A stretch of DNA of 64,000 nucleotides. Origin: Myxococcota bacterium. Lineage in GTDB: Bacteria; Myxococcota_A; UBA9160; UBA4427. Of this stretch, positions 57,780-64,000 are shown in pieces. Every line of letters starts with the position of its first letter. Position 1 is the first letter of the stretch. The position numbers and the translations under genes were made by a program. Location: assembly GCA_965250285.1 (NCBI GenBank), contig OZ252299.1, positions 1,248,001-1,312,000 of the forward strand. Direction: 5' to 3'. The notes beneath the pieces are model-generated. The model saw nothing but the letters and a program-made list of their open reading frames with translations. It had not been told where the DNA came from and made no database searches.

Positions 57780-57927
57780 GGGGCTTCTCCGGTCGTTCGG
57801 CGGGCGAATGGACCACCCGAGTGGATCGGACACCGAGAAAGTACTCATGAGGACTGAATTGGCAAACGCCCCGCGGGCGGCGAGCCTCGATCCGCCTGTG
57901 CGGCGAATGCTACGGTGCGCGCCACGT

Positions 57928-58009
57928 GCCGGGGTGGCGAAACTGGTAGACGCAGTGGCCTTAGGAGCCACCGCCCTTGGGCGTGCAGGTTCGAGTCCTG
58001 TCCCCGGCA
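57928..58009 (+). tRNA. tRNA-Leu (TAG), CCA not encoded
   Basis: GCCGGGG/CCCCGGC acceptor; GTGGC-CTTAGGA-GCCAC anticodon arm; long variable arm; GGTTCGAGT. Confidence 0.96.
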
Positions 58010-58117
58010 CCCTTCCGCGTTGCATTCATGCAGCTCAGCCCCGCGAGATCTTCGGCGGGCCGCATCTGCCATCGCATCGGAAAGCACGAGGCGGCCCCAG
58101 GTCAACGACGTCACGGC

Positions 58118-60650: not shown

Positions 60651-61475
60651 TTGGATGATCCCAGCCAGCTCGCGTTCTGGGCCAGCCTCCTCGCCGGGGC
60701 CGTGATCGGCGCGTGGGCGGGCTTCTCGGCGACGTCGGGTTGGATCGTCGTCTTCCCGCTGCTCTTCGTCGTGGCCGAGCGACCGCTCTTCGAGTGCCTG
60801 CTCGCGTCGCTCGTCGTCGACTGGTCGTGCGCCTTCGTGGCGGCCGTGTCGTACGTGCGCCGCGGCGACGCCGACGTCGGCTTCGCGGTGCGCTGGGCCG
60901 CCATCTCGGTCCCCCTGGTGCTGCTCGGCGTGGGCATCGCGGTGAGCGTGCTGCCGCACCTCGACTCGCTGCTCGGTGGCATCTCCGGGCCGATCGCGAT
61001 CGGCATGGGGCTGCTGCTGTTGCGACGAGCGTGGCGCTCGGGCGCACCGCCGACGGTCGATGCCCAGGACGCTCAGCCGACGGAGGGCCCGCGCCACGCG
61101 ACGGGGGTGCTCCGCGCCGGCCTCGTCGCCAACGGCACGCTGATGGGCATTCTCGGTCAGAGCGGCGGACTGAATACGGCGCTGCTGCTCATCTGGCTGC
61201 GGGGCAAGCCCACGCGCGCCGCCGTCGCGACGGCGGTGCTGCTGGGCGCGATCGTGCTGCCCGTGGGCATCGCCGCCTATCTCTGGGTGACAGCGGGGGC
61301 GGGGGGGCTCTGGCCGGTGCTCGGCCCCTTTGCCCTGGCCAGCATCGCGGCTTCGGCGACGGCGGCGCACCAGGTCGCGCACATTCCCGAGCGCAGGCTC
61401 GAGTTCGTCGTCGCCTTCTGCGTGTTGCTCGCCGGCACCGTCGCGACCGCGCAGCGCTGGATCATGCCGGTCTGA
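60651..61475 (+). CDS. TauE/SafE (TSUP) family transporter
   Basis: About 8 TM segments; G..GA..G…GW..VFP and GILGQSGG repeats, AVAT. Confidence 0.7.
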   Translation: MDDPSQLAFWASLLAGAVIGAWAGFSATSGWIVVFPLLFVVAERPLFECLLASLVVDWSCAFVAAVSYVRRGDADVGFAVRWAAISVPLVLLGVGIAVSVLPHLDSLLGGISGPIAIGMGLLLLRRAWRSGAPPTVDAQDAQPTEGPRHATGVLRAGLVANGTLMGILGQSGGLNTALLLIWLRGKPTRAAVATAVLLGAIVLPVGIAAYLWVTAGAGGLWPVLGPFALASIAASATAAHQVAHIPERRLEFVVAFCVLLAGTVATAQRWIMPV

Positions 61476-61524: not shown

Positions 61525-62649
61525 CTACAGACCGAGCTGATACATCCGGTGCACCTTCCGCACCTGGCCGTTCAGCGACTCGACGTTGCTGAGCATGCGG
61601 GCCGTCGTCTCCTGGATCTGCACCATCTCGAGATCGGTGAACTGGTCGTGCTCTTTCAGTGTGTTCTCGAGCTCCTGGTAGAGCATCATGTTCGCGCCCG
61701 TCCCCTGGAACTCCGGCAGGATGCCCATGCCATTGACCAGCAGCCACGGGGTGCGCTTGATCTCGCGCCAGAGCCTGAAGAGATCGAACACCCCCACCGT
61801 TCCGCCGCTGCGCTGAAGCACCGACGACAGGTCGTAGAAGCCGAAGAGGAAGCCGACGACCTTGTCGTCGTGGGCGATCAGCTTGATCAGCTCGGGGCGC
61901 GCGATCTGCAGCAGGCTCTTCTTCAGATAGGCGATCTCGTTGGGCGAGAGCTCGTAGTTGCCCGGGTGATCGGCGAGCGTCTCGTAGAACAGATGGACGA
62001 CGTCGTCGGCGAGCCGCTCGAGCTCCTTCTTCTTGCGCAGGCGAAGCACACGAAAGTGGCCGTCGGCCGCCGCCGCATCGGCGCGCTCGCGAAGCGGTTC
62101 AGGCAGCCGTGCGGTCGTGGGCAGATGGAACGAGAAGTTGTCGAGATACTTCTCGAAGCCGAAACCCTCCATGAGAGCGGGGAGCCACGGCCCGTTGTAG
62201 GGCATCATCGTCATCGAGGCGCGATGCTCGAAGCCCTCGACCAGCATGCCGCCGCCGGTCACACCCCCGAAGCCCATTGGGCCGATCAGCTGCTCGAGCC
62301 CGCGGTTGCGCGACCAATCGCGTGCCGCTTCGAGCAGGCGATCGGCCACCGCCCGATCGTCGACGCAGTCGAAGAAGTAGAAGTGTGCGCACTTCATGTC
62401 GTGGGTCGCGTTGTAGCGCGGGTTCTCGAACACGAAGATGCGACCGAGCGCGCGGCCCTCGTGCATCGCCACCAGGAACTCGCCGTGGGCGTGCTCGAAG
62501 AGGGGATGCCGGCGATCGACGAGCTCGGCGACGTCGCCCTTCAGCCACGGCACCCATTGCGGGTCGTCTCGGTGAATCGACGCCGGGAGCGTGTAGAAGT
62601 GCTCGAAGGCAGGGCCCTTCGCATTCTCGACCTTCACGATCTCGGTCAT
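61525..62649 (-). CDS. GNAT-fold protein (YghO-like)
   Basis: DPQWVP, HPLFEH, GRI, IGPM, GMLVEGFE, MMPYN, MGILPEFQGTG; GGAGG RBS. Confidence 0.75.
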   Translation of the reverse strand: MTEIVKVENAKGPAFEHFYTLPASIHRDDPQWVPWLKGDVAELVDRRHPLFEHAHGEFLVAMHEGRALGRIFVFENPRYNATHDMKCAHFYFFDCVDDRAVADRLLEAARDWSRNRGLEQLIGPMGFGGVTGGGMLVEGFEHRASMTMMPYNGPWLPALMEGFGFEKYLDNFSFHLPTTARLPEPLRERADAAAADGHFRVLRLRKKKELERLADDVVHLFYETLADHPGNYELSPNEIAYLKKSLLQIARPELIKLIAHDDKVVGFLFGFYDLSSVLQRSGGTVGVFDLFRLWREIKRTPWLLVNGMGILPEFQGTGANMMLYQELENTLKEHDQFTDLEMVQIQETTARMLSNVESLNGQVRKVHRMYQLGL

Positions 62650-62784
62650 GCGGTCACCTCCATCGTCGGCGTGTCGGGTGGGTCCAAAGGCGCATATCAA
62701 CGCTATCCCACGCGGCGCCAGGCGGCCGCGGGGCCGAAGCCCCGGTCGCTGCTCGGGTCGCGGTGCACCCACCTCATCGGGGCG

Positions 62785-64000
62785 TCAGCGTGATCGGCGG
62801 GCAGCCGACACGCGCAGCGCGATCTGGTGAAAGATCGAGCGAGCAAAGCCGAGCGGGTGGCTTCGCAGCTGGCGCAGGAGCAGCCGGCGAAAATGGGGGG
62901 CGCCGTCCATCGTCGACTTGCGCTGACCGGTCTCACCATGAAACGCGAGGTCGGGCATGTCGACGGGCTCGAGCCCGACATCGAGCGTGAAGTGCTCGGT
63001 GCGCGGTGCCAGGCAGCTGGTGTCGGTGCACGCCTGATAGTGCACGGTCACGTCGATCGGCACCGAATCATGGTCGACCGGTCGACACTCGCTGACGAGC
63101 TCGGCCCGCGGGTAGAATGGGACCACGATGTCGACTCCGTCGTCCCACACGTTCAGCGTCAGGTCGAGCCCGTCGAGCCGCAGGGGACGGGTCGGCGGAA
63201 CCTCGGGGTCGAGCGTCACGAGGCCGTCGGGCCCCGACACCTCGACCCGTGTGGCCACCATACCTTCGGGCACGGGCTCGCCATAGACGTGCAGACCGTC
63301 GCCGAGCGAGAAGCGCACGACGAGCTTGCGAACGATCCCCTGACGCAGGGTGCCGCGACCACCGTGCACGAAGGTCTCGATGCGCACGTCGTCGTCGCCG
63401 CCCGTGAGGGGCGTGTCGTCGGGGCCGGCGAGCACGCCGCCGAGCGCTGCGTCGATCAGACTCTCGGCGCTGTCTCGCTTCTTGTAGCTGTCGTGGAAGA
63501 ACTTCTCGACGACGACGCCGTGCTCGTCGGTGACGTACGTGCCGGGCCAGGGCACGCCGTAGGCCGGGATATCGCCCGGCTTGAGGGCCGTGTTGAGGAT
63601 GCCGTAGCGGCGGATGACCTCGGAGCCCGCGTCGGAGAGCATCGGGTACTCGATGTCGTACGTCTCAGCGAACGCGGCCAACGCGTCGACGTCGTCATAC
63701 GAGATGGCGTAGAGCTTGATGCCCGCCGCCTCGAACTGGGCCTGTGCATCGCGCAGCTCGACGAGCTGCGTAAAGCAGGGGGGTCACCAGACCGCCGATC
63801 GAAAGAACACGACGGCGGCCTTCGAGTCGCCGCGGTCAGCGTGAAAGTCGACCGTGCGCCCGGTGTGGTCGGTGAGCACCCAGTCGGGCAGCCGCTCGCC
63901 GATCGCGGGGCCGGTCGGCGCCTCGTCGGGCATGTTCGCGCGGCCGGGGTGCCCGAGCGGGGCCGGCGCGTCGAAGCCGAGATGGTCGCGTTCGTGAAAG
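62785..64000 (-). CDS. Selenocysteine-containing AhpC/TSA (thioredoxin-fold, UxxC) + DsbD-N-like fusion protein; 5' end probably outside window
   Basis: Frame open from 63999: GPAIGERLPDW.LTD...VVFFRSAVW-TGA(63786-63784)-PPCFTQLVEL...YAISYD..; C-terminal HVYGEP...YQACTDTSCLAP. Confidence 0.85.
63741..63783 (-). promoter_or_regulatory. Bacterial SECIS-like hairpin
   Basis: After the UGA: CGCAGCUC-GUC-GAGCUGCG (63770-63752), loop G 22 nt downstream of the UGA; lower CCUG/CAGG pairing. Confidence 0.7.

Follow-up and report, generated by a model that had tools for sequence, protein, structure and literature searches.

A predicted selenoprotein of Myxococcota joins a Prx-like UxxC domain to a DsbD-alpha-like domain

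Prx-like proteins with a UxxC motif have been listed among predicted selenoproteins since 2008: Dataset S1 of PMC2398784 (2008) holds, under '#Prx-like 1' (pfam00578, UxxC), orthologues of the clade described here with U at the active site. The string UPPCWTQL occurs 10 times in this dataset of GOS ocean sequences, and one read, JCVI_READ_1947008, has the same U site and extends into the C-terminal domain; the reads are partial, and the passages concerned do not discuss the C-terminal domain, the absence of a signal or a mechanism. A Prx-like U/CxxC domain fused with a Pfam11412 'DsbC' domain bearing an extra conserved Cys was reported in PMC9402790 (2021), in one sentence and a figure panel that give neither mechanism nor localisation, and the clade depicted there may be either the present one or the exported one. 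A 2026 review (PMC13188914) counts Prx-like UxxC proteins among the high-confidence predictions, and literature searches of incomplete coverage returned no experimental study of the Prx-like/PF11412 fusion. The gene that we describe here has the architecture of the 2021 fusion, a PF00578 UxxC domain followed by a PF11412 domain with conserved Cys, and falls under the 'Prx-like 1' definition of a PF00578 domain with UxxC (104 bits against a cut-off of 26, E 5e-30). Family and fusion are already predicted and the gene adds one more member, so the novelty implied by an earlier note on this DNA does not stand. What we did not find in the published descriptions is the apparent absence of a signal peptide, the missing peroxiredoxin Pro and Arg, and the predicted cationic tail.

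The closest characterised systems are of two kinds. In the DsbD/ScsB/CcdA systems (PMC3322552), an alpha-type Ig fold with a Cys pair likewise works beside a Trx-fold CxxC partner; electrons run from CcdA to the Trx-like and on to the alpha domain, that is, in gamma-to-alpha order, and ScsB-type nDsbD domains also donate to the Trx-fold partners TlpA and PrxL. Unlike DsbD and ScsB, the protein encoded here has no transmembrane beta domain (no DsbD_TM match in a Pfam search) and no export signal, its location being judged from hydropathy; unlike DsbD, it would carry Sec in place of the first Cys, and its second Cys pair is spaced by x4 rather than the x5 of E. coli DsbD-alpha. SOQ1 of Arabidopsis (bioRxiv 2021.03.16.435614 and 2024.11.01.621559) likewise has a Trx-like and an nDsbD-like domain in one chain, of which the former reduces the latter one way, and the nDsbD-like domain shows Msr activity (bioRxiv 2024.11.01.621559). 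The selenoprotein differs from SOQ1, which has HAD, TM and NHL domains, a CCINC motif, a thylakoid lumen location and no Sec; the NHL beta-propeller found between the two domains in SOQ1/NHLRC2-type proteins is absent, the two domains being joined by about 10 residues. By the precedent of DsbD and SOQ1, a relay from Sec to disulfide within a single chain is plausible. Our preferred reading, which we hold with about even confidence, is that the 406-residue selenoprotein would be a cytoplasmic thiol reductase acting in two steps, the Sec domain giving its electrons to the Cys pair and the pair passing them on to substrates.

The window analysed is a stretch of 64,000 nucleotides of a Myxococcota genome (assembly GCA_965250285.1, contig OZ252299.1, positions 1,248,001 to 1,312,000). 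The gene lies on its minus strand and comprises 406 codons, from 62785 to 64000 plus 5 bases past the window, where the genome sequence supplies an ATG at 64005-64003 with an AGGA-type element 5' of it and an in-frame stop 5 codons further upstream; it ends with the stop codon TGA at 62787-62785. Start region and length are common to the host gene and 19 relatives. The earlier note had placed FFRSAVW-TGA-PPC in the same frame as the ORF at 62785-63681, with the frame open up to the window edge, and had left the start and a possible signal peptide to the upstream sequence; the frame is as it described, and the start just given is followed by no signal peptide. There is exactly one internal in-frame TGA, at 63786-63784 (minus strand), corresponding to residue 74 in the context W73-U74-P-P-C77, and the coding sequence is conserved on both sides of it. 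As that note had also anticipated, annotation pipelines mishandle the gene: public protein collections store it as a 285-residue N-truncated fragment that lacks the active site, and among the database matches listed, 120 of 120 cover at most 81% of the query and are downstream fragments only. The neighbourhood in the window comprises a downstream GNAT-family gene (61525-62772, minus strand), a membrane protein gene that has no Pfam match (60651-61475, minus strand) and a tRNA-Leu (57927-58012, plus strand), and we saw no link between any of these and the selenoprotein.

The UGA at residue 74 almost certainly encodes selenocysteine, judging from its conservation and from the residues that homologues carry in its place. 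Full-length orthologues, each with exactly one TGA, occur in 19 of 60 related genomes. A scan of species genomes gave 169 relatives, and the site reads TGA, never TAA or TAG, in all 80 of the best 80, one of the two search patterns behind these loci being the Cys form. These 80 loci come from several phyla; record titles of the relatives are mostly marine Myxococcota/'Deltaproteobacteria', Halieaceae and other Gammaproteobacteria, and Alphaproteobacteria. Within the host phylum, the two-domain gene is present in 17 of 301 genomes, with one TGA in each. Among the best 150 representatives of more distant homologues, 39 read through the site and carry CxxC (34), CxxS (1), S (2) or W (2), which puts Cys at the UGA position in 35 of the 39. 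The alignment of homologues mostly places Cys or Sec at the site, and the earlier note's proposal of a hidden selenoprotein is borne out.

Should the TGA instead be a real stop, in a pseudogene, a split gene or through sequencing error, one would understand why databases hold only downstream fragments and why one relative has a broken copy (G036; L033 on G036:C206, where additional stops and a changed frame interrupt the copy; the genome is 75% complete). Yet this is hardly credible given a TGA that is never replaced by another stop across several phyla, a frame intact on both sides, the Cys homologues and the constraint on the SECIS hairpin described below. Sequencing error is ruled out by the 80 of 80 TGA loci and by agreeing run contigs: the TGA-spanning contigs from two public runs show zero differing letters and neither TGC nor TGT, while a third run's contig covers the TGA near its end, all three runs belonging to one study, which may be the source of the sequence.

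The genome was also expected, from the window, to encode the Sec machinery, and the host (G000) does so: selA, selB and selD, all above curated cut-offs, and a tRNA-Sec. Its SelD (L003, G000:C1:5312234-5313154, minus strand) is of the Cys type (CGGC) and makes up the last part of an open frame of 781 codons, which resembles the Ndh-SelD fusions reported in PMC2398784. A selA match is present in 21 of 21 carriers among 61 kin genomes (split over two contigs in G008) and a full-length copy of the gene in 0 of 6 kin genomes that lack selA, counts that are non-independent because the genomes are kin. The host has a paralogue (L007, G000:C1:2345597-2346712, minus strand) that is 48% identical with the same UPPC site; its hairpin is a variant and its Cys pair the same. 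Other candidate in-frame TGA codons, set in CxxU or UxxC motifs, occur on G000:C1 at positions 3573817, 5740006, 3186092, 121328, 3754820 and 3020228, which we take to resemble AhpD-like, PrdB-like, SelL-like and UGSC families. The list is no census of host selenoproteins, since the screen behind it was a strict one that failed to pick up two genes identified by other means.

Downstream of the UGA lies a bSECIS-like hairpin (63752..63770, minus strand), which the earlier note had already described correctly: a perfect 8-bp stem, 63770-63763 paired with 63759-63752, and a GUC loop with its G (63762) 22 nt past the UGA. Published bSECIS limits are a 3-9 nt loop, a 4-16 bp stem, a G in the first two loop positions, a 16-37 nt spacer and an MFE of at most -7.5 kcal/mol (PMC13188914); the hairpin, with a 3-nt loop, 8 bp, GUC, a 21-nt spacer and -18 to -19.6 kcal/mol, lies within all of them. 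As a control for chance, such a hairpin follows 214 of 31,674 sampled genomic TGA triplets (0.7%). Across 90 distinct coding sequences, codons 79-85 are under the strongest synonymous constraint in the gene: Thr79 is ACG in 89 of 90 and Glu83 is GAG in 90 of 90, the top two of 169 conserved sites by this measure and both within the hairpin, and the mean synonymous excess is 0.50 over 8 sites against 0.06 over 157 others (p 2e-4, uncorrected for kinship). Seven stem pairs are kept in 85-90 of the 90 sequences, and the first loop base is G in all. Covariation is thin, with a two-sided change at one pair (6 A-U, 60 G-C, 22 G-U and 2 mismatched); 23 of the 90 sequences have a disrupted closing pair, and six of eight examples, picked partly as deviants, have a different minimum-energy fold. 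The folding z-score varies with the window taken, from -3.16 (50 nt) and -2.72 (41 nt) to -1.23 (60 nt) and -0.20 (80 nt).

Peroxiredoxins are marked by a PxxxT/SxxC motif and a conserved catalytic Arg. The N-terminal domain of the selenoprotein (residues ~30-192, 63430..63918, minus strand) follows a conserved hydrophilic extension (residues 3-29, 63919..64000, minus strand, recognised by hydropathy and motif only). In a confidently predicted full-length model (pLDDT 90.7, pTM 0.89), residues 30-192 match peroxiredoxin and ResA/TlpA folds, with the best Z of 16 to chains of the BCP and AhpE peroxiredoxins; BCP/PrxQ and AhpE are its closest fold and profile matches. Unlike in peroxiredoxins, however, the catalytic Pro and Arg are replaced: all 90 sequences have Arg69 and Pro154 in the corresponding columns, Pro154 occupying a position like that of the Trx cis-Pro, and in the alignment to BCP-type proteins U74 stands opposite Thr/Ser and Cys77 opposite the peroxidatic Cys. 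No NCBIfam model reaches its cut-off, and all peroxiredoxin models score far below theirs. The two replaced residues and these scores rule out a true peroxiredoxin, and with U74 facing Thr/Ser the domain resembles a thiol-disulfide oxidoreductase instead.

These features bear on the direction of electron flow. Selenocysteine favours a role as terminal nucleophile, and this, together with the peroxiredoxin folds nearest to the N-terminal domain, would suit a reverse flow, in which the Sec domain is a terminal peroxide or disulfide catalyst recycled by a thioredoxin-fed DsbD-alpha-like domain. Caulobacter ScsB, which reduces TlpA and PrxL, offers a parallel, but peroxidase activity could not be detected in PrxL itself, which likewise lacks the peroxiredoxin Pro and Arg (PMC3322552). 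Given the loss of both residues in every sequence and the low NCBIfam scores, we regard reverse flow as a possible but distinctly less probable arrangement than flow from the N- to the C-terminal domain. The latter direction is preferred because of the precedent in the DsbD/CcdA systems and SOQ1, and the thioredoxin reductase of the host counts in its favour.

The C-terminal domain (residues ~203-347, 62965..63399, minus strand) is recognised as DsbD_N (PF11412) with 29.5 bits against a cut-off of 25 (E 8e-7), and residues ~200-347 of the full-length model match ScsB-alpha and DsbD-alpha folds, in line with the two-domain anatomy proposed earlier. Folded alone, the domain matches 6C29 (Z 12.6, rmsd 2.5, 125 aligned), 1JPE (Z 11.5, rmsd 2.3, 108 aligned) and 2K0R (10.9), the next match scoring 9.3, and its top Foldseek matches are nDsbD. 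The SOQ1 structure 7DJK is among the fold matches of the full model (Z 9.4), and SOQ1 is absent from the top 50 of the C-terminal domain alone. By sequence the relationship is remote: a profile of the domain searched against PDB retrieved only four sequences up to E 10, all of them DsbD-alpha with the Cys pair aligned, the alignment of the pair to 1L6P being weak (E 0.7), whereas a single-sequence search gave only weak, unrelated matches, and the alpha domain of the host's own DsbD, compared profile to profile, likewise matched weakly (probability 4.9%). The motif YQACTDTSC, read in the earlier note as a DsbD-alpha-like Cys pair, lies at residues 323-331, and Cys326-x4-Cys331 (63013..63030, minus strand), which aligns with the catalytic pair of E. 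coli DsbD-alpha, is invariant in 90 of 90 sequences, as are the four redox residues together; the pair is kept in 103 of 113 distant representatives. One distant homologue, P0126, has the two-domain unit duplicated, with Ser at the first Cys position in the second copy and an N-truncated first copy. Another copy (L066/P0110) runs in frame into a glutathione S-transferase domain, a single case and possibly a lost stop.

Whether the two sites would exchange electrons within one chain is a separate matter. The confident packing of the two domains could equally keep the sites apart, and the conserved N- and C-terminal extensions of the rigid model (pTM 0.89) may block domain movement. Single-domain relatives exist as well (G020, G235 and G260, partial matches), so that each domain might serve separate partners, electrons might cross from one subunit of an oligomer to another, or the role of the Cys pair might be structural. 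We consider such arrangements rather unlikely, since the fusion persists with both sites intact across exported and signal-less branches at ~30% identity and the Cys pair sits at the catalytic position of DsbD-alpha.

Neither a signal peptide, a Tat signal nor a transmembrane segment was found by hydropathy and motif in 21 sequences of the clade: none of the 21 has an N-terminal hydrophobic stretch or a 19-residue segment that exceeds 1.6 in Kyte-Doolittle hydropathy. A hydrophobic N-terminus is present in 27 of the 39 read-through relatives and absent in the closest Cys forms. Most Cys relatives have a signal peptide and this clade does not, so a cytoplasmic location is probable for its DsbD-alpha-like domain. 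An unrooted quick-search tree of 52 rows, made up of 15 Sec, 27 of 29 full-length representatives and 10 truncated sequences, recovers the Sec clade as a single branch of 16 rows (SH-aLRT 98); P0184, P0220 and P0126 were left out, and three intended Sec rows were dropped as duplicates. On this unrooted tree the signal-less label requires at least 4 changes, and we therefore claim no order of events. The C-terminal tail (62788..62952, minus strand) is predicted to form two cationic amphipathic helices, 369-382 and 384-405, with a hydrophobic moment of 0.65-0.71 against 0.44-0.46 in control helices; a cationic amphipathic tail of 55 or more residues is found in 87 of 90 sequences and may serve as an anchor on the membrane's inner face.

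The DsbD-alpha-type domains of solved structure lie outside the cytoplasm, and the host genome carries two full DsbD/ScsB genes plus a further DsbD_TM gene that could act as partners, along with CcdA, if the protein were exported by a route other than a classical signal, or were held in the membrane with its domains on the outer side, as the hydrophobic N-termini of the read-through relatives might suggest. The lack of any hydrophobic stretch in the clade argues against this, as does gene context, dsbD or ccdA lying near none of 82 clade loci, and we think export very unlikely. No neighbour that would point to a donor or substrate is conserved across the signal-less clade, the host gene is flanked by unrelated-looking genes, and NrsF is near none of the 82 either. 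Among 80 metagenome loci of exported Cys relatives, dsbD or ccdA is adjacent in three (L176, L213 and L222), and in nine (L150, L155, L157, L159, L165-L167, L174 and L194) the gene immediately upstream, in the same orientation, encodes an NrsF anti-sigma factor, with its ECF sigma gene present in most, assignments checked with Pfam on 2 pairs.

Other redox genes also came to light in the host and near family members. The host has two membrane-anchored Prx-like genes with W-U-P-Y-C, L009 (G000:C1:3873687-3874172) and L008 (G000:C1:2320385-2320870), of which L009 directly follows a full dsbD/scsB-like gene. In 14 of 80 loci, with Halieaceae-type titles (L056, L061, L069-L071, L073, L075, L077, L089, L094, L097, L104, L111 and L118), the same UPYC selenoprotein gene stands next to the fusion gene in convergent orientation, on the opposite strand; the opposite strand rules out a two-selenoprotein operon in Halieaceae. 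In 9 of 82 loci there are GST-like ORFs no more than 300 nt away; since 38 such ORFs occur in the host genome by itself and the search seeds were drawn from the same loci, this link was set aside and is not used as evidence.

In the two-step reductase that we favour, SelB and tRNA-Sec would recode the UGA, and the U74-C77 site would be reduced by the cytoplasmic NADPH/thioredoxin system or by glutathione. U74-C77 would then pass electrons to Cys326-Cys331 of the DsbD-alpha-like domain, which in turn would reduce oxidised target proteins, while the cationic tail may keep the protein at the inner membrane face. Such a scheme would amount to the gamma-to-alpha step of DsbD minus its membrane part.

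The identity of the targets can be framed more speculatively. The SigF/NrsF system of Azospira responds to reactive chlorine and controls methionine repair (PMC4436054), and the nine exported Cys relatives behind SigF/NrsF would fit a mini-DsbD that repairs oxidised methionine or cysteine. The host has an MsrA in addition to its thioredoxin reductase. That this widespread marine clade has a DsbD-alpha domain relocated to the cytoplasm and coupled to Sec, in a soluble mini-DsbD that would be a bacterial methionine sulfoxide reductase on an nDsbD fold, similar to SOQ1, we regard as a long shot.

The gene is a clean case of a family that has been predicted since 2008 and that public collections still hold as N-truncated fragments. 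With public entries lacking the active site, many marine genome annotations are correctable. A DsbD-alpha-like domain that comes without a signal and together with Sec would provide a simple soluble system for the direction of electron flow between Trx and nDsbD folds, and the same system would be suited to asking whether nDsbD folds reduce methionine sulfoxide, a question that comes from the SOQ1 preprint (bioRxiv 2024.11.01.621559).
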